Source: Centruroides vittatus (taxonomy: Eukaryota). From it: a DNA stretch of 64,000 bases. Positions 24,388 through 49,460 of the stretch are shown here, piece after piece; positions within the stretch are counted from its first letter, which is position 1, and each line of letters opens with the position of its first letter. A program made the translations under genes and the position numbers. The stretch is from positions 1,738,938 through 1,802,937 of the forward strand of contig NW_027122681.1 of the NCBI RefSeq assembly GCF_030686945.1, in the 5' to 3' direction. A model generated the notes under the pieces. It ran no database searches and was not told the DNA's origin. It saw only the letters and a program-made list of their open reading frames with translations.

Positions 24388-24723
24388 ATGGACGATTCCT
24401 CCGTGAAGAAAATAAGAAATCCCGTTGGCGATCCTCCCTCATTAGGAGAAGACCCTTCTCGATTGGAAAGGGAGGAACCCCCAAATGAAAAACTGAATGG
24501 AAACATGGAAGACGTGTTGCCAGTTGCAGGTACGTCCGTCGTCAAGAAGAATCGAAAGATTAATGTAAGAAGAAGTATCGAACGCCGAACAGTTAGAAAA
24601 CGAAAAAGATCCGTGTCGGGAGGGAGATCGAGGAATAGGAAGATCAGGCGATCCAGGTCGAAGGTAAGGAGCAGTGGCAAGAAGAAGAGAGGACCCAAGA
24701 GGAGACGGAGGGTTTTATTTTAA
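24388..24723 (+). CDS. Putative small basic protein of 111 aa. The N-terminus is acidic and the C-terminus is Arg/Lys/Ser-rich, reminiscent of protamine/SNBP or SR-tail proteins.
   Basis: ORF MDDSSVKKIRNPVGDPPSLGEDPSRLEREEPPNEKLNG...RRSIERRTVRKRKRSVSGGRSRNRKIRRSRSKVRSSGKKKRGPKRRRRVLF. Locally more GC-rich than the surroundings. Promoter motifs lie upstream. An internal CAG|GTACGT at 24528 could alternatively be a donor. The antisense strand is also open because of purine bias. Confidence 0.35.
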   Translation: MDDSSVKKIRNPVGDPPSLGEDPSRLEREEPPNEKLNGNMEDVLPVAGTSVVKKNRKINVRRSIERRTVRKRKRSVSGGRSRNRKIRRSRSKVRSSGKKKRGPKRRRRVLF

Positions 24724-29034: not shown

Positions 29035-29339
29035 CTAAAGCAAGGGTTCCCGAATAAAATCTAATATGAAATCTTCCCAATTTTTGCCTACACCGAGAGA
29101 CTGGCAAGCCATGGAATGCTTGTGTTGCATACAAATTATAAATCTGATCATTTTAATAATGGGTATCAAGTCTGCCCAGAGTATTGTTTCGGCTAGAAAA
29201 TCTGCAAGGTGTTGTAGTTTATCAATTTCGGTACTTCCAGAGATCTTTTTCTTAGAAAACTGGACAAAGTAGGATGCACAGAACAGGAGAAAGGCTAATG
29301 TGGATACCATGAATTCTATATCTTTAGAAGCTTTCGTTC
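29035..29339 (-). CDS. Terminal exon 3 of a three-exon gene. Protein unknown. Exon reads ...TKASKDIEFMVSTLAFLLFCASYFVQF...WEDFILDFIREPLL, then stop.
   Basis: Acceptor ...aattatttag|GAACGAAAG after a 64-nt intron (29340-29403). The reading frame continues in phase from exon 2 and ends at TAG at 29035-29037. Confidence 0.6.
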
Positions 29340-29403
29340 CTAAATAATTTAGTAAATTGTTAAAACCTAAGGATGAATTCTTAAAAAGAAAATATAATCT
29401 TAC

Positions 29404-29706
29404 CTAGAGAATTTAAACCGGCTTCTCTGAGATGTAACAAAAATGGCTTTTTAAGAACTCCTTTCTGGAGGAGGATTCCTTCTGTGCAAAATCCACCATT
29501 CTGAAAAATTTCAAACAATTCTATTAAATTTTGGCAAGTTTTTGTTATGTACATTCTTAATATCAAATTTGACTTTAAGGGCTTTTGAAAATTTAATTTG
29601 CTTACTTTATTAATAATGTTAGACAAATCTATGATTGTTTTTCGTACTTTATCGTCGCAGTCCAAGTCTAAAATTTCTGGTTCCGGTTCTGAAATAGCAT
29701 TTTCAC
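29404..29706 (-). CDS. Exon 2 of the same gene, 303 nt, beginning ENAISEPEPEILDLDCDDKVRKTIIDLSNIINK and ending ...GILLQKGVLKKPFLLHLREAGLNSLG.
   Basis: Acceptor ttatcgtttttcag|GTGAAAATGC at 29707. Donor CTCTAG|GTAAGATT at 29403. Open over 100 codons with phase-1 boundaries that are compatible with exons 1 and 3. Confidence 0.6.
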
Positions 29707-29980
29707 CTGAAAAACGATAATACTTTATTATCTAATCTAATTTTTGTGATTCATGCTGTATGACCTATTGGTCTGGTGACGGTCCGGCCAAACATTGTGT
29801 GAATGCCTTAATTAAAATGCGTAATACAAACTGTTGATATCTCTGACAAGAAAGTTTTTGACAGTCAGTTGAATAACACTAAAAAAAATAGTAAGTTACT
29901 TGACTTCTGTGCTTTTAGTTAGAGTTAAAAATGAAAAAACTTTCTGCCGTGTGGATATTAAGAGGGCTTATTTTCCATAC

Positions 29981-30056
29981 CTGTTGTAGGTTTATTCAAA
30001 TCTGGATGGGACAGACAGGATACAGTGCCCATGAAAAATTCTTTGGGGTTGCTCAT
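29981..30056 (-). CDS. Exon 1 of the same gene. ATG at 30056..30054, then MSNPKEFFMGTVSCLSHPDLNKPTT.
   Basis: An in-frame TGA sits immediately upstream of the ATG. Donor ACAACAG|GTATGG at 29980. The second Met is followed by GTVSC, which is a possible N-myristoylation/palmitoylation motif. Confidence 0.5.
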
Positions 30057-30512
30057 TCAGATTTGATTCTGGATTCCTCAGTATGATGCCTGTAATTACC
30101 TCAGCCATATGGCCGTCGCCAATAAAACAGTGACAATTATATAAAAGGGAAAATTGTCAGTCTGGTGATTGGCAGATGCAGACAACCAACTGCTGTATAG
30201 TGTGAAGCAACTTTTCACATGCAATATGTCACAGCAGTGGTGTGCCATGACATTTGATGATAGGGAAGCTGTGTTTCTGTAAGAAGACGACTTCCAGGGG
30301 CAATCAGTGATGGTCTAGAGTCCATTTATATTCGTTTGTTCAATAAGCCAGTAAGAACTGTAGACTTCTCTAAATGTATTTTTAATAGATTATCTGATAT
30401 ATTGAACTTGTTTATTTATTAAGTACATCAAATATTTTAATGGATTTTTTTAAAACTCCTGTCAACTATACAAAACATAACCCAACCGATAGGAGTTTCC
30501 TGGTAAGTTATA

Positions 30513-31067
30513 CGTGGTACGATCCAAAAGTTCGGGGACTGCAGTAATCTATGACAACAAAAGCATGTATTTGAAGTTACGGCGTATGAAATGGATTCTA
30601 CCAAACCACCTCTACGTGTTCAGGTTAATTTCACCCATGTCATGTGATTAAACCGCGAGCGCTGCTGTTTTTTTCCGGAGATAGTTACCTTTGTTCTGCG
30701 ACATAATAAAAGTAGAGTTTCAAGAACAACCTCCAACATTAAATTTTGTCAGCGTTTAGGTAAAACACCTACGGAGATTTTAAAATTGCTAAGAAAGGTG
30801 TACGGTGATTCTACGGTGAAAGGTCACGATGAAGTCGAAATGTTGGAGGTTGTTCTTGAAACTCCACTTTTATTACGTTGCAGAACAAAGGTAACTATCT
30901 CCGGAAAAAAAACAGCAGCGCTCGCGGTTTAATCACATGACATGGGTGAAATTAACCTGAACACGTAGAGGTGGTTTGGTAGAATCCATTTCATATGCTG
31001 TAACTTCAAATACATGCTTTTGTTGTCATAGATTACTGCAGTCCCCGAACTTTTGGATCGTACCACG
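30513..31067. mobile_element. Mariner-derived foldback MITE, copy 1. About 555 bp, fully palindromic, with a TA target-site duplication.
   Basis: ta|cgtggtacgatccaaaagttcgggg...ccccgaacttttggatcgtaccacg|ta. The arms 30513-30790 and 30800-31067 are reverse complements. The arm encodes FCQRLGKTPTEILKLLRKVYGDSTV, a mariner N-terminal HTH-like segment. Confidence 0.75.
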
Positions 31068-31856
31068 TAAATCAAGGGCAAGGGCGGCCAAATATCTAGC
31101 ACGCAGGTGACTAACAGCCCAGAATTGGTCCTGGATAGAATCATTGGAAGCGTTATACGATATTTTGGTGTGTGGCTTCCACTAGCTAAACCACGTCAGG
31201 TTGGTGCTCTGTAAAGTGCATGCGCAAATGCCTATAATCTGGTTGTTTTACTTCATTCGCCATGGAAGCTGTCCTGTATTCAACAATACAGCAAACACTT
31301 CCATTGGGAATATCCCTATATGAATTTATATTTGAAAATACAATAGCAATCTTATCGTTTTTTTCACATGTAGTATAGAAATTTGTAATAAAATATATAT
31401 TGCGGTTATAATAAAATGTAAATTTTAATTAATTCAAAGTATATTCAAATATGAAAATAATTGCGCAATATGTATTTATAGTTTAGAAAATACAAGGAAA
31501 GTGGCACTTCCAAGAACGGCACGCCACTGTGTCACAGTGAAGTCAGACCAGTTTGCATGACATGAATAGTGCTATTAATGCCATATGTTTTCACATTCAT
31601 CACACTTGTCACTTTAAAACCAAATGAAAATTTTTTAAACAGGCAAATTTATTGAAACCTGTTAATTCCCTTTGTACACGATTTGTTTTGATCTAAACAT
31701 TTTTCAAGATTGTGTAAAAAAAAATCTGTGTTTTATAATGACAAATAATCTGTATTAAATAAAAACATTAACATAACAAAACATACTTTAGAATTTTATC
31801 AGTTATAAAATAAAAAAAAATAAAAAAATAAGAGACTTATTTCAAACTTACAATAC

Positions 31857-31975
31857 GGGATATTCTTTAATAACTCGAGTAATTCTTCATTATTTTCTTT
31901 CATTGCAGTATTTTGGATATTAGTAAATACAAAGTCACATAATGGCAAACCACCTTTACATTTAACCCATTCTAT
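31857..31975 (-). CDS. Candidate internal exon encoding EWVKCKGGLPLCDFVFTNIQNTAMKENNEELLELLKNIPY.
   Basis: Acceptor ttaatttttttcatag|AATGGG at about 31976. Donor TATT|GTAAGTTTG at about 31856. Open frame across the exon. Gene assignment unknown. Confidence 0.35.
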
Positions 31976-34520: not shown

Positions 34521-35042
34521 AACAGAAACAATGTGAAATTGTCATTGGTTAACCAGGGCTTTAAACTACAATACTGCAAGTAAATAATACTTTAAATGTT
34601 GAACATTAAACATTTTAAATAAGAAATGCCAGCAATTTAAATGTTAACTGTTGTTAAAGACATTACTGAAATAAACAGTAGGCAAATAACACTTATTAAT
34701 TAATAACAATAATTGTAATTAATAAAGCTTCAAGTTATACTTTAAATAATGGATGTATAACAAGGATATGTTAAGACAATTTTTAATTGTCTTAACATAG
34801 CCTTTTAGAGTCAACAAAACATAAATTTCCACTAACTTTACCCTATTAGAAACTGTACAGAGTTTTGAGACACTTGATTCCTACTCACTCTGTGTGTAGG
34901 ACCACATACCCCTTAACGATCCCCTTAAACTGTACACATAACATGAAGAGGTTGTCCATTAATTAATGGTATAGGAGTGCTTCAAAGTAATACAATAAGT
35001 TGATTTCTCCAAGCTTAAAAAATTGTTTTTCTTTCTCATACC

Positions 35043-36408
35043 TTTTAATTCAATGAATATTGAATAGGTAGTTAATTCCTTCTGTGTAATTTCTGTTTCT
35101 CCGTCTTTGACGACAATTTCAGTATCACCAAATTTAACTACTTTTGATCCTGACTTCTTGGAAGAAAAATCTACAGGTCTATGCCTTTTCATTACAGATT
35201 GTTGAGGAAGAGACAATGGATATGTTTGCATAGAGAATTCTCGTAATTTAAGAAGATGTTGCTTTTGGAGCTGCTCCCCTTCATCTGATGAAACTGTTGA
35301 AAAATTATCATCATTAAATTTAAAATCTGAAAATGAAAAATAGATATTTGATATTTTTTTTACTTGAAGAAGGTAAGTTAGGTGGTACACCAGGTCGACT
35401 AACAAATTCTACTAATGTGGCTGATGGACTGCTTCCAAAACATGGTACTGAGGAGGGGGAGTGACCACTTCCAAAGCCTGAAACTGAGGAGGGAAATGCA
35501 CCACTTCTAAAACATGGTACTGAAGACTGTGTTGGACCACCTCCAAATTGTGGTACTGGAGGTGTTGGACCACTTCTAAAACATGGTGCTAGAGAGGGTG
35601 TTGGACCACTCCAAAAAGTTGTGGTACTGAAGAGGGTGTTGGACCACTTTCCAAAATCATGGTACTGAAGAGGGTGTTGGACCACCTACAACGATTGTGG
35701 ACTGAAGAGGGTGTTGGACCATTTCAAACAAATTGTGGTACTGAAGATGGTGTTGGACCACTTCTAAAACATGGTGCTAGAGAGGATGTTGGACCACCTC
35801 CGAATTGTGGGACTGAAGAGGGTGTTGGACCACTTCCAAAACCTCCAAATTGTGATACTGAAGAGGGCGTTGGACCACTTCCAAAACGTGGTACTGAAGA
35901 GGGCGTTGGACCACCTCCAAATTGTGGGACTGAAGAGGGTGTTGGACCATTTCCAAAACCTCCAAATTGTGGTACTGAAGATGGTGTTGGACCACTTCTA
36001 AAACATGGTGCTAGAGAGGATGTTGGACCATCTCCAAATTGTGGGACTGAAGAGGGTGTTGGACCACTTTCAGCATCTGGAAGAGGTTCATCTCCCTTCT
36101 CAGTTTCAAAGTCTGAAACCAAGTACAATGAACTGCTTCCAAACCGTGGTACTCTGGCAGAACAAGGTTGAATTTTCTGCATTAGAGCTGAGTATCCAGT
36201 TATTACTTCTTGGTTGGATACAAAATGATCCTCATGTGCTGATCTATGTGTAGTGGCCTCAAGAGATTTTCTTGAAACTGCACATAATTTTGAATTCACT
36301 GCATCGTAAGTTTCTACAAAATTTGCATCTAATTCAATGCTTTCATTTAGATAAAACCTATCTTCTCCAGTTTCTACATTTAGTTTTTTTAATTTAAACA
36401 ATACTTAA
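35043..36408 (-). CDS. Large coding exon, or exon plus mini-intron, for a low-complexity protein. It contains at least 12 tandem units of the roughly 12-aa unit GPTPSSVPQFGG, which is FG-repeat-like. Local frame breaks mean it may be a pseudogene or may contain assembly errors.
   Basis: Minus-strand frames that read ...LPDAESGPTPSSVPQFGDGPTSS...SGPTPSSVPQFGGFGSGPTPSS...: 35724-36401, 35320-35685, 34959-35405. The last two frames join cleanly if a 37-nt intron (CTTCAA|gtaaaaaaaatatcaaatatctatttttcattttcag|ATTTT, about 35325-35361) is spliced out. 3' donor TTAAAAG|GTATGAG at 35042. 5' acceptor tttctaaatag|TTTAAG at about 36409. A stop and indels in the repeats lie around 35620-35730. Confidence 0.45.
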
Positions 36409-40502: not shown

Positions 40503-40863
40503 ATTCCCAAAAAATTTTCCCTAAGAAAAAAATGTCTGAAGTCAACAGGTAAGTAGAACCCCCTAATTCAAATCTGCCTGGACCCCATGAAGCTATAACA
40601 CACCACTGACGTTGTAAGTTCATAATTAATATGTGTATTTAAACATACTTGGTCTAACAGGCTTTAAGCAATAGTGGAACCCTTCACCCAATTGGTTTCT
40701 TAAATTGAGGACCTACCAGACTAAAAATAATTTCAATTCTCACTAGAATAATCAAATTTGATACAATTATATCTCCAATTCAAATTAATTCATATTAATT
40801 GTAGTATATTAATGTTACAATAAATTAAAATGAAAATATAATATATACTTTTTTCTCGTTTAC

Positions 40864-40920
40864 CAATAATTTCCTCAGAATCCTCAGCAATGGCTGAGTG
40901 TAATGTTGCAACTCTTTTAA
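40864..40920 (-). CDS. Second 57-nt exon, in frame with the previous one, encoding VKRVATLHSAIAEDSEEII(G).
   Basis: Intron gtatttttaagtatacaaatttagactttcttttataccatttttttaatgttttttttttccag|TTAAAAGAG. Donor ATTATTG|GTAAACGAG. The frame is continuous from exon 40986-41042. The copy-B counterpart has diverged (acceptor ccag mutated to ccgg). Confidence 0.45.
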
Positions 40921-40985
40921 CTGGAAAAAAAAAACATTAAAAAAATGGTATAAAAGAAAGTCTAAATTTGTATACTTAAAAATAC

Positions 40986-41042
40986 CTTCTGTAGGGAATA
41001 CTTGCACTGAGGAAAGTACTGTAGCAGGCATATCTTTATCCA
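40986..41042 (-). CDS. 57-nt symmetric (phase 1-1) exon encoding (V)DKDMPATVLSSVQVFPTE.
   Basis: Acceptor ttttactttcag|TGGATAAAG. Donor ACAGAAG|GTATTTTTAAGT. It is followed by a textbook 62-nt intron with a polypyrimidine tract. The paralogous exon at 48394-48450 keeps the frame with nonsynonymous changes (VNKDASATEPTSVQVFPTE). Confidence 0.5.
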
Positions 41043-42644
41043 CTGAAAGTAAAATAAATTAAAAATAGGAAATTAGAATTTATGTAATATTAGCAATAAA
41101 TTTCATTATACTGTATTGTAAACTAAAAGCTATTTACGTCCGATGACGTACATTGTAGTTTATATTCAAAAAATGGTAAAATCCCAAATAAAATATAACT
41201 CATCGAATTTGACCAAAAAGCTAAAAATCATAATTTAATTTTTAAAATTAACAAAGAAAAAACTTCATATGCATAAAAGTAGTTCAAGAAGTCATTTATT
41301 TGTGTTAGAATTAATGGAATAAGGAGCAATGCAACACTCGAGTTATCTGCTACGGGAGTGGTACCACACAGGATGAAATTCTATGGAAAACCAGCCCAAT
41401 TTAAGTGTTAGGCATGCGAAGAAAACCTGGAAAACAATACTGAAGGGTACAAACTAACAATCAACTACCAGTATTTGTGCTTTTGTGTAGTAAACTGTGG
41501 ATTTATTCAGGATAAAATGTTTTTCAAAATAGCAACACCTTATTGTCAGGTCCAACTGAAAGAACAGAATTTGAATAAAAATATCACCAGATTGTTCTAA
41601 AAAACTGTTTTCTGGCTTTTTGAACACACAGGCAATGTTGTTTTCATTCAAATTACATTCTTTCAGATTCTAGTTGGATCTAATAAAGAGATGTTGCTGC
41701 CATTGTGATAAATGTTTTATAGATTAAACTATCTTCTTACCAGATTACTGGAATGAATCACACACAATCAAGAACCTTTAAAATCCAGTAACATTTCATT
41801 AAAATTTGTGTTACTGAACTTTTAAGAACCTTTAATGTTTTATTCTGAATAAACCTGACTCCAAGGAATGGTTTATAGTATTTACACAGATTTGTTTGTT
41901 TATCTACAGAATCATTAATGTTAGAACATATTTTAAAACCTGGCCAGTGATTTAAATAGGGTTTGGCCAGGCCAGTGACTAGATGGCCAAGGAATGGCCA
42001 TCTAGTCATTGGCCTGCGGGCCCAACATATCCAGAATGGACCAACCTCAAAAATTTCCTGTTGTTTTTTTCACCCATCTGGATTTGTTTTTGGGTCATCT
42101 GTGGCAGTAGGCTGACACTTTAACCATTCAGCCGTCTGCCCATCATCAAAATACATTTATAATATACAACAAATTTTCTTGAAATACTTTTTCATAGCTA
42201 GCCATTATTACATCATCATCAAAATAAAATTGGTATGGACTGACTTAATTTGAGTGCAGTTGAATCTATTGCTATAGAAAATACATCTGGCAAGAATATT
42301 GATCTCTATAAAATATTTATATCAATAACATTTTTATTTTTATTGTTTGTACCATATTGACCTGCAAACTCGACTTCACAAAGACTGAGTAAACCAAGTC
42401 TCTGAAAATGACAAGTTTATAGTGACGACGCTAGTCTAAATATGGGGCTCCTACTCAAATTTTTGTTTTAAATTCCACGATTTTGATGACTTTTCCTGAG
42501 CAACTTTCTACAAATTCCGACCCTCACGTCCCCTACAGGATGGCACATTGACAAAATAAATCAGCATTTGACTTATTATGCACATATGCTATTGCTTCTC
42601 CAACTTTTTAGTTAGTTATTTTTTTTTTCTAATTAACAGTTATA

Positions 42645-43516
42645 CGTGGTACGATCCAAAAGTTCAGGGAATGCAGTAATCTATGACAACAAAAGCATGT
42701 ATTTGAGGTTACAGCATATAAAATGGATTCTACCAAACCTTATCTACGTGTTCAGGATAATTTCGCCCATGTCACGTGATTAAACCGCGAGCGCTGCCAT
42801 TTTTTTCCGGGGATAGTTACCTTTGTTTGGCGACGTAATAAAAGTGGAGTTTCAAGAACAACCCCCAACATTAAATTTTGTCAGCGTTTAGGTAAAACAC
42901 CTACGGAGACTTTAAAATTGCTAAGAAAAGTGTACGGTGATTCTACCATGGCGAAGTCGAAAATGTACGAATAGCATTGGCGTTTTAAAGAGGGCCGAGA
43001 ATCCATCGCAGACAATCAACGCTCTGGCCGACCTTCGATTTAACAGGATACACAGGTTGAGTTTATCCTGCAAACACATTGAGCATTGAGAGACAACTCA
43101 ACATTTTCCTCATTCTGTTAAATCGAAGGTCGGCCAGAGCGTTGATTGTCTGCGATGGATTCTCGGCCCTCTTTAAAACGCCAATGCTATTCGTACATTT
43201 TCGACTTCGCCATGGTAGAATCACCGTACACTTTTCTTAGCAATTTTAAAGTCTCCGTAGGTGTTTTACCTAAACGCTGACAAAATTTAATGTTGGGGGT
43301 TGTTCTTGAAACTCCACTTTTATTACGTCGCCAAACAAAGGTAACTATCCCCGGAAAAAAATGGCAGCGCTCGCGGTTTAATCACGTGACATGGGCGAAA
43401 TTATCCTGAACACGTAGATAAGGTTTGGTAGAATCCATTTTATATGCTGTAACCTCAAATACATGCTTTTGTTGTCATAGATTACTGCATTCCCCGAACT
43501 TTTGGATCGTACCACG
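42645..43516. mobile_element. Mariner-derived foldback element, copy 2. 872 bp, perfectly palindromic about position 43075, with a TA target-site duplication.
   Basis: ta|cgtggtacgatccaaaagttcagggaatgcag...ctgcattccccgaacttttggatcgtaccacg|ta. Each arm retains the mariner 5' end and translates to CQRLGKTPTETLKLLRKVYGDSTMAKSKMYE*HWRFKEGRESIADNQRSGRPSI. This is HTH_48-like (compare [25 protein letters not shown]), with an in-frame stop. Confidence 0.8.
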
Positions 43517-46849: not shown

Positions 46850-49460
46850 AAATTTTTTGTGAACTGTATACCATTGCTGGTTACACACACAAAAATACGG
46901 TACTTGATTTTGTTACATCATCATCGAACAGTAACAAATCTATGTTCTGCTCCTATCAATTTTTATGTACTGTACATTAGAGCAGTGATCTCCAAACATT
47001 TTTGATTATGAACACCTAAGATGAAAATAATTATAAGTTGTACCCTCTGTATTACATTATAATTTGCTAAATTTCCACTATAAATACATAATTCCTGCTA
47101 AATTTCCCACTACCCGCACAATTTGAGTTTTTTCCATGTATGATCGCAAGTGATTGTGAACCTACTTCTTTGGGAGGATGAATAAGATTAGACAGACTGC
47201 AGACAGACACACATACAGTATTTTGAAGGAAAACTTGCCATACCCCATGGGATATGCATACCCCACTTTGGAAACCACTGCATTAAAGCATGAATGATAA
47301 TACCTCTCTTAATTATTTTTATAACAATAACTGAAACATTAAGTGTATTCTGAATATATTTAGATTTTTGCCTGAATTTAACGTTATCAAATAATGTAAA
47401 AAAAATTCAAGCAGATCCAGGAATGTATTTGTAAATATTCTAAAAGCATTAATCATTCTACAATTAAAAAGATTTTCTGGCTACTTAAACGTTTCCAATG
47501 TGTTTTGATATTTTTTGTAAAATTATGAAGCTACTTTGTTACATTATACTTTGAAATCTCAAGTAAAAAGCTATCAAAGCTAAGAAATTGAAGCAAAAAT
47601 ATTACTACATAATCAAATACAAATTAAAGATTTTTTTTCTCAGTTAATTTGAAATGTTTATTACATTAAAGAAATAATTTGCATCATTTATAGGAAAAAT
47701 TAAATACAGTAAACCTTTGATTTAACAGACTTCAGACTTAACAAAAAGTTATACATTTTTCCTTTAGGACAGAAAATTCTTTTTAATATTCATGTATAGA
47801 GCACACTAAAACATTAGGCCAATGAGTCAACAAGTATAAATTACTCAATATACATTATAACAACATTCCAATACATCCTGTATGGTGTAAGTTTGTAATA
47901 AGTATGTGTTTAAAAACCTATTTGATAGTGTTTTAAACCTATTACATTTAATAGACTTTCAGCAATAGTGGAACCCCTTCCCCTAATTAGTTTCTTAAAT
48001 CAAAGGCCTACCAAACTAAAAATAATCTCTCTTCTCATAAGAATAATTAAATTTGATATAATTATATCTCAATTCAAATTAATATGAATAATGTTACAAT
48101 AAATTAAAACAAAAGTGTAATATATACTTTTTTCTTCTTTCTCAGTGATTTCCTCATTGGCACTAAGAACTTCTAACCTTACTACAATTAAATTTGATAT
48201 AATTATATCTCAATTCAAATTAATATGAATTAACGTTACAATAAATTAAAACAAAAGTATAATATATACCATTTTCTAGTTTCTCAATGATTTTCTCATT
48301 GGCACTAAGAGAGAGTAACCTTCCTACAACCGGAAAAAAACCATTAAAAAAAATAGTATAAAAGAAAATCTAAATTTGTATATTTAAAAATACCTTCTGT
48401 AGGGAATACTTGCACTGAGGTGGGTTCCGTAGCAGAAGCATCTTTATTCACTGAAAGTAAAATAAATTAAAAATAGAAAATTAGAATTTATGCAATATTT
48501 ACAATACAGTATAACAAAATTTATTGCTAACTAAAAGCTATTTACGTCCGATGACGTACATTGTGGTTTATATCCAAAAAATGGTAAAATCCCAAACAAA
48601 ACATAACTCATTGAATTTGACCAAAACACTGAAAATCATATATTTTAATTTTTAAAATTAACAAAAAAAGAGAACTTCGTACGTGTAAAAATAGTTCAAG
48701 AATTCATTTATTTGGGACAGGATTGATGGAATAATGGGCACAATACAACACTTTGGTAATCTACCAACGGAAAGGTGCCACACAAGAAGAGTTTCTATAG
48801 GAATTCTGTCTCCTATTTACGTGTTAGGCAGGTGAAGAAAACCTGGAAAACTCTACAATTTCCAAGCTTTTGTATGTTTGTCGGTTGATTTCTTCCAGGA
48901 AGAAAGCAACCACCTTTTCATCCAACTTCACAAACTTGCAGCCAATAACTAATGTTTGTGGTTTTATGCACTTGACCACCGATTTATTTGGGACAAAATA
49001 TTTTTCCAAACAGTAACATCATCTTGTCAGATCCAACTAGTTTCAGAAAGAACATGATTTGAATAAAAACATTATTGCAAGAGTGTTCTAAAAACTTTTT
49101 TTCTGACTTTTCAAACACACTGGTGACATTTTAGATCTGATGAGATATTGCTGCTCTCTTGATAAATGTTTTATTCTGAATAAACCCAACTCCATAAACT
49201 ATTTGTAGTGTTTGGAATGATTTGTTTATCTATGGCGTCATTAACATTACATCCCATTTTAAAGCCCAGCCAGTGATTTATATAGGGTTTGTCCCAGGCT
49301 CATGACGACGTTGCCAAGTGCTGAAGGACAGGACTTCACTTATCCAAGTTGGGTTCCCCCAAAAAATTCTCAGGATTTTGACCCGTTTGGATTTGTTTTT
49401 GGATCATCCACAGCAGTAGGCCAACACCTTAACAGAATAGCTGCTTTCAACACTGTAGCT
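46850..49460. repeat. Segmental duplication copy B, the partner of 38690-42140.
   Basis: See copy A. Copy B contains the paralogous mini-exon at 48394-48450. Confidence 0.75.
48394..48450 (-). CDS. Paralogous 57-nt exon (VNKDASATEPTSVQVFPTE) in duplication copy B. The downstream partner exon appears degraded.
   Basis: Same acceptor and donor context as 40986-41042. The reading frame is preserved. The following acceptor ccag is changed to ccgg. Confidence 0.35.

Follow-up and report, generated by a model that had tools for sequence, protein, structure and literature searches.

PARP4 is usually treated as a component of the vertebrate vault. In the human protein (Q9UKK3; PDB entries 9bw6, 9bw7 and 11jf), a helical C-terminal MVP-interacting domain (MINT or MVPID, amino acids (aa) 1562/1570-1724) attaches the enzyme to MVP repeats 3-5 in the vault interior. 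The segment that precedes this domain is disordered and evolves rapidly (PMC12280208, PMC10450202), and it is this linker that evolves fast in the PARP4 of primates (PMC10450202). Here, we analyzed a stretch of 64,000 nucleotides (nt) from the scorpion Centruroides vittatus (assembly GCF_030686945.1, contig NW_027122681.1, positions 1,738,938 to 1,802,937 of the forward strand), hereafter called the window, and more precisely a large minus-strand exon (35042-36401) that codes for a tandem repeat of the FG (Phe-Gly) type. We lean towards reading this exon as coding for the disordered linker of a PARP4-type C-terminal module and for the lead-in to its folded domain, the frame breaks that interrupt it being, in this reading, mostly artefactual.

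A first-pass annotation of the locus had proposed a minus-strand coding exon, and this exon is genuine. Its flanks match a single protein, XP_067141085.1 (P0001 in our set), a 270-aa 'uncharacterized protein [Centruroides vittatus]', at 100% identity. By exact spliced alignment, the coding sequence of XP_067141085.1 lies at 35231-35042, 31971-31852, 29706-29606, 29500-29404 and 29339-29035, i.e., its first coding exon corresponds to the end of the exon studied here, and its introns of 3070, 2145, 105 and 64 nt are all of the GT-AG type. The four downstream coding exons (29035-31971, minus strand) were delimited by the same spliced mapping and by homology to the PARP4 C-terminus, and they code for a helical C-terminal domain. 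The annotated donor also sets the 3' end of the exon at 35042, where 35043 had initially been given.

On the minus strand, the exon forms a single long coding stretch that is split into three frame segments, as defined by the open reading frames (ORFs), their frames and the spliced mapping. It is composed of a non-repetitive N-flank of ~110 codons (36069-36401, FKLKKLNVETGEDRF...), in which frame 1 is open, of the repeat array and of a non-repetitive C-flank (35042-35326), both flanks being present in the frames first described. The C-flank, identified by homologue search and spliced mapping, contains from 35231 the annotated start of XP_067141085.1 (MQTYPLSL...) and ends in ...TYSIFIELK, followed by GTATGAG. 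The 5' end of the exon is provisional: an in-frame TAA is located at 36407-36405, frame 1 opens directly after it, and two positions, 36404 and 36374, are candidates for the end of the acceptor. The N-flank has no match in a Pfam scan and no homologue in a word-indexed search. It contains no ATG for 72 codons before the in-frame ATG at 36182; since plausible acceptors are also found at its end, at least one further upstream coding exon is likely. The GC content of the window is ~31%, in agreement with the 30.85% published for the C. vittatus genome (PMC11304958).

The first-pass annotation had proposed that the flanks be compared with protein databases. Such searches led from the flanks to XP_067141085.1 and from the C-terminal domain of this protein to an orthologue of PARP4. 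Indeed, an exhaustive HMMER search of 1.84 billion representatives aligned aa 71-265 of XP_067141085.1 with aa 1985-2183 of a protein called P0003 (E 1.2e-5). Pairwise BLASTP gave 2e-12, with 27% identity over ~200 aa, and the Smith-Waterman score of the pair is 154, against 33.9 +/- 5.3 for shuffled sequences (maximum 58; z ~23). P0003 has 2198 aa and is encoded on one transcript contig (locus L001, 170-6766) of run SRR3401116, which belongs to an invertebrate meta-transcriptome series. It carries the Pfam domains BRCT, PARP_reg, PARP, VIT and VWA, and its match to full-length human PARP4 among PDB sequences reaches 2.2e-230; by its sequence, it is a complete invertebrate vault-PARP orthologue. 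We conclude from these alignments that the C-terminal domain of the scorpion protein is homologous to the PARP4 C-terminus.

The resemblance is not restricted to the folded domain. The conceptual 607-aa scorpion protein is colinear with aa 1714-2183 of P0003 over ~490 aa, repeats lying on repeats. Indeed, the linker of P0003 contains, ~150 aa upstream of the C-terminal domain, a region rich in Ser, Thr, Gly and Phe, with 3 SSTGIFGG and 4-6 FSFGN (i.e., FxFG-type) motifs. The RefSeq model of the scorpion gene starts at 35231, at the first Met that follows the disturbed frames. The full product is most likely longer, with 600 aa or more, and the 270-aa RefSeq protein a truncated version of it, because the tandem repeat is apparently garbled in an assembly based on continuous long reads (CLR). 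The 'uncharacterized' XP_067141085.1 most likely corresponds to a truncated PARP4-type C-terminal module. The exhaustive search also returned a second match, P0002 (E 2.5e-8), which we rejected as spurious, its E-value being the sum of 11 short stretches. P0002 is an 858-aa protein made of ~16 near-identical 52-aa tandem repeats, with absurd Pfam matches (G-alpha, lasso peptide); it illustrates how tandem repeats can inflate E-values and is not a homologue.

The repeat itself occupies 35431-36068 on the minus strand and comprises 17 units plus 1 degenerate unit, as established from Tandem Repeats Finder (TRF), a unit table, the composition and the alignment to P0003. According to TRF, the array covers 35425-36069; the program reports three periods (36, 117 and 234 nt), scored at 510-760. 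Anchored on GGTCCAAC, the 18 units of ~12 residues extend from 36065 to 35380, where at least 12 copies had been announced. Units 1-8 and 13-17 measure 36, 45 or 33 nt, always multiples of three; the units encode (S)GPTPSSVPQFGG(FG), GPTSSLAPCFRS, GPTPSSVPQFGGFGN and close variants, and twelve clean units were translated. The array also has a higher-order structure with a period of 117/234 nt, in which units 1-6 recur as units 7-12. Two plus-strand ORFs (35659-36171 and 35771-36001) overlie the array; as first supposed, they are artefacts, such by-products being expected of a stop-free repeat unit.

The low-complexity Ser/Pro/Gly/Phe segment is ~215 aa long. The clean repeat protein (179 residues) is composed of 22% Ser, 21% Pro, 17% Gly and 9.5% Phe; its 17 Phe are spaced by 12 residues, and it contains 11 FG dipeptides and 6 charged residues. 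From this composition, which is FG-like as had been noted, the repeat is expected to be disordered. The FG-like composition and the regular Phe spacing also account for the initial idea that the exon encodes an FG nucleoporin or some other repeat protein with a structural role. We find this idea extremely improbable, because both its position and its homology place the exon in a PARP4-type linker. Indeed, the folded domain attached to the repeat matches the PARP4 C-terminus and not any nucleoporin anchor domain. Moreover, when the flanks, the repeats and XP_067141085.1 were scanned against Pfam, the scans revealed, at E <= 1, neither a nucleoporin family, nor a domain anchoring proteins to the nuclear pore complex, nor any other family, except for a sub-threshold PNRC motif.

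Several observations weigh against the PARP4-type reading. First, tblastn of P0003 detected in the window the C-terminal exon only, and none of the PARP catalytic, VIT and VWA exons; a permissive tblastn with aa 1-1720 of P0003 gave nothing but noise. No BRCT-WGR-HD-ART and no VIT + VWA region is found on the minus strand within 27.6 kb upstream of the exon, and these regions could lie beyond the window. Second, the similarity to the human MINT domain is not significant: a two-sequence profile aligned with aa 1580-1637 of human PARP4 at E 1.1 only, and this match was lost with a shorter profile. Across the phmmer or hmmsearch runs of XP_067141085.1, the C-terminal 541 aa of P0003, profile A1 and sub-profile A2 against PDB sequences, no E better than this 1.1 was reached. 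The secondary structure predicted by AlphaFold2 for the scorpion domain is all-helical, at the low confidence of a two-sequence alignment, and the model (predicted local distance difference test score of 42.6) is too poor for a fold comparison; searched with Foldseek against the PDB, it gave no match at E < 2.7. Third, no orthologue was recovered from other scorpions, word-indexed searches with the flanks, XP_067141085.1 and the two-sequence profile returning XP_067141085.1 alone. Fourth, the differences between repeat units show no excess at third codon positions and thus give no indication that the repeat peptide is under selection. Finally, two exons of a nuclear receptor lie 24-27 kb upstream on the same strand, and the direct link of the exon to a full PARP4 gene is consequently unproven.

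These two zinc-finger exons (~63700-63640 and 60531-60400, minus strand) encode together a nuclear-receptor DNA-binding domain (Pfam zf-C4, E 2.5e-30 once joined). Its P-box, CESCK, is atypical. Hinge or ligand-binding exons of this receptor were not found in the window by a motif search, which was inconclusive, and the nuclear-receptor gene may extend across the PARP4-like locus or enclose it.

With these intervening exons and no PARP4 body exon within the upstream 27.6 kb, one can ask whether the locus is a stand-alone gene devoid of the PARP catalytic part, which would encode a short N-terminus, the FG-type repeats and a MINT-like domain. Such a gene would stem from the 3' end of PARP4, and its product would be a natural FG-repeat protein targeted to the vault lumen. 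RefSeq indeed treats the locus as a separate gene, and the in-frame ATG at 36182 could serve as its start. However, the 72 codons upstream of this ATG are open up to a possible acceptor, which we estimate to occur by chance with p ~0.003 at the local base composition, and which points to upstream coding exons. Moreover, P0003, the only complete relative, carries the module within one 2198-aa PARP4 transcript. We therefore regard a stand-alone gene as unlikely.

We then come to the frame breaks. A stop and indels had been reported around 35620-35730. They correspond to a TGA at 35726-35724 and to an indel cluster at 35759-35608 on the minus strand, as delimited with the unit table and by comparing cognate units. 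Units 9-12, which fall in this patch, measure 39, 37, 38 and 38 nt, and because of their 8 small indel events (net +5 nt) the repeat, read in frame 1 until then, continues in frame 0. The higher-order structure of the array allows its copies to be compared: units 1-2 differ from the cognate units 7-8 by 2 substitutions and 0 gaps, whereas between units 3-6 and units 9-12 there are 8 gap events and 6 substitutions in ~120 nt. Everything else is intact, i.e., the 110 codons of the N-flank, the 13 clean units, the C-flank and, further downstream, five coding segments together with their splice sites. All frame-disturbing events would fall by chance in one 152-nt stretch with p ~1e-4, a rough value that assumes 7 events where 8 were counted.

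Misassembly had been suggested as one possible cause of these breaks, and this is reasonable in view of how the genome was produced. The assembly was built from noisy PacBio CLR reads, pooled from one male and one female, with Ratatosk short-read correction and only Flye's own polishing (PMC11304958). Because the lesions are dense, dominated by indels and located inside a higher-order repeat of a CLR assembly, we infer that the stop and the frameshifts of units 9-12 are probably an artefact of the assembly consensus. By its sequence, the patch resembles the mis-piled consensus of a length-variable array and is unlike natural decay. A rescue of units 9-12 by splicing was also considered and rejected: 26 GT-AG solutions exist formally, but their sequences recur in every clean unit and their splice signals are poor.

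On the other hand, the breaks could be genuine and the repeat-coding part a recently decayed relic, left for instance by a partial duplication of the 3' end of PARP4 or by the break-up of a PARP4 gene, the product being either the 270-aa protein initiated at Met 35231 or nothing at all. Several of the observations given above fit this explanation: the RefSeq model begins downstream of the breaks; the window lacks catalytic, VIT or VWA exons and has exons of another gene upstream on the same strand; the homologue searches found no orthologue in other scorpions; and the units bear no codon-position signal of constraint. Yet neutral decay is expected to scatter its lesions, while the 8 indel events sit in ~120 nt and the N-flank, the clean units, the C-flank and the downstream exons are still open, with their splice sites preserved. 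Moreover, an indel-rich spectrum (8 indels versus 6 substitutions) fits the noise of a long-read consensus and not natural mutation. Genuine decay is thus conceivable, and we consider it rather doubtful. If the artefactual origin holds, the locus provides a concrete case of repeat-coding exons damaged in CLR-based assemblies.

The second disturbance of the frame is a +1 shift at 35363-35327 on the minus strand, which we examined by frame arithmetic and by comparison of splice signals. The first-pass annotation had explained it by a 37-nt GT..AG micro-intron and had taken the exact junction as support for very short introns in this genome. Removing these 37 nt (GTAAAAAAAATATC...TTTTCAG) does formally join frame 0 to frame 1; this part of the proposal stands, and the GT..AG ends and the T-rich 3' end TTTTCAG resemble the annotated introns. 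The solution is, however, not unique, as 34 GT-AG pairs in all restore the frame, the 37-nt interval being one of them. This interval is itself open in the downstream frame and contains no CTAAY-like branch site, and its candidate donor, GTAAAA, is weak compared with the GTAAG or GTATG found at all four annotated introns. The generalization to very short introns is not supported either: the shortest annotated intron of the gene is 64 nt long, and alternatives keep the frame. A true micro-intron at 35363-35327 consequently appears unlikely.

Two alternatives to the micro-intron deserve attention. From the same donor, a 70-nt intron (35363-35294) keeps the frame equally well, and its size fits the annotated introns of 64 and 105 nt; such an intron is plausible, though we would not bet on it. 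The other solution involves no intron at all. Indeed, the candidate donor sits on an A8 run (35361-35354), and once this run loses one A, the ORF is no longer interrupted (...PPNLPSSSKKISNIYFSFSDFKFNDDNFSTV... / ...PPNLPSSSKKISNIYFSFSDFKFNDD...). A homopolymer error in this run is the most economical reading of the shift, because the CLR assembly already shows indel noise 250 nt away, and we see about as much reason to accept it as to doubt it. The locus thus calls for caution towards micro-introns deduced from frame arithmetic alone.

If the exon does belong to a PARP4-type module, the order of the coded parts suggests how such a protein could work. A short non-repetitive stretch would be followed by ~18 FG-type units of 12 residues, then by a lead-in of ~95 residues and by a helical domain of ~200 residues. 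By analogy with human PARP4, the folded C-terminal domain would anchor the protein to the inner wall of the vault. Judged by its position, the repeat would constitute a disordered and fast-evolving tether from the ITIH-like body to the anchor domain; we infer this vault docking and this tether role from the arrangement of the parts. The length of such a tether could change quickly through the gain or loss of units, and weak cohesive contacts of a hydrophobic kind may come from its regularly spaced Phe residues or FG motifs.

A bolder variant would be that, in invertebrate vault PARPs or in a stand-alone scorpion derivative, the FG repeats are functional in a nucleoporin-like manner and tethered by the MINT-like anchor. 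We consider this variant very unlikely. If it were true, the lumen of the vault would contain a nucleoporin-like FG phase with cohesive properties, which could bind nuclear transport receptors or retain cargo selectively. The old and unproven idea of a link between vaults and nuclear-pore transport would then have a molecular basis. Our literature search on vaults in chelicerates gave no useful result. The locus adds evidence for PARP4-like vault-anchor modules in these animals.

Other features of the window are located away from the exon. A dispersed direct repeat (40620-42000 and 47920-49320, ~1.2-1.4 kb, 73-79% identity) probably represents copies of an interspersed element, and the translated fragments of the two copies share FILLSV.KD...VQVFPTEGIFKYTNLDFLLY. 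An ORF fragment on the minus strand (43190-43381) has a weak match to the HTH_48 family of the Mos1 transposase (E 0.0011, below the Pfam cut-off) and is probably the remnant of a mariner-type transposon. On the plus strand, a 111-aa ORF starting with ATG (24388-24723) has a highly basic tail rich in Arg, Lys and Ser (KRKRSVSGGRSRNRKIRRSRSKVRSSGKKKRGPKRRRR) and no Pfam match; possible explanations are an exon that encodes part of an RS-like or nuclear protein, or chance.

The locus can finally be compared with four known systems. Like the FG nucleoporins (e.g., the FxFG/GLFG domains of Nsp1, Nup62 and Nup153), the scorpion repeat presents regular Phe-Gly motifs in low-charge spacers of the Ser/Thr/Gly/Pro/Gln type; unlike them, it is far richer in proline, and many of its units carry CFR and not FG. 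VWA5A illustrates that a MINT-like domain can occur outside PARP4. However, VWA5A has VIT and VWA domains, which were not found at the scorpion locus. With human PARP4, the locus shares a low-complexity disordered segment followed, at the very end of the protein, by a domain that is all-helical (in the scorpion, by a low-confidence prediction). On the contrary, the similarity between the scorpion domain and the MINT domain is not significant, and BRCT, PARP, VIT and VWA exons are not detectable in the scorpion window. We found in the searchable literature no description of a regular 12-residue FG-type tandem repeat in a PARP4 linker, nor any mention of FG-type repeats in such linkers at all.

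The fourth system is that of P0003, in which a repeat region with FG motifs (IFGG, FSFGN) also lies upstream of the homologous C-terminal domain. Its repeat unit is nevertheless different, being of ~35 aa, rich in Ser and Thr and provided with some acidic residues, whereas the scorpion unit has 12 aa, is rich in Pro and is almost uncharged. The FG-type expansions of the two proteins are therefore probably independent. The comparison also suggests a linker under little sequence constraint, which fits the lack of an excess of third-position differences between the scorpion units. Disordered linkers carrying FG-type repeats would thus have expanded independently in two invertebrates, which constitutes a lead for vault biology.

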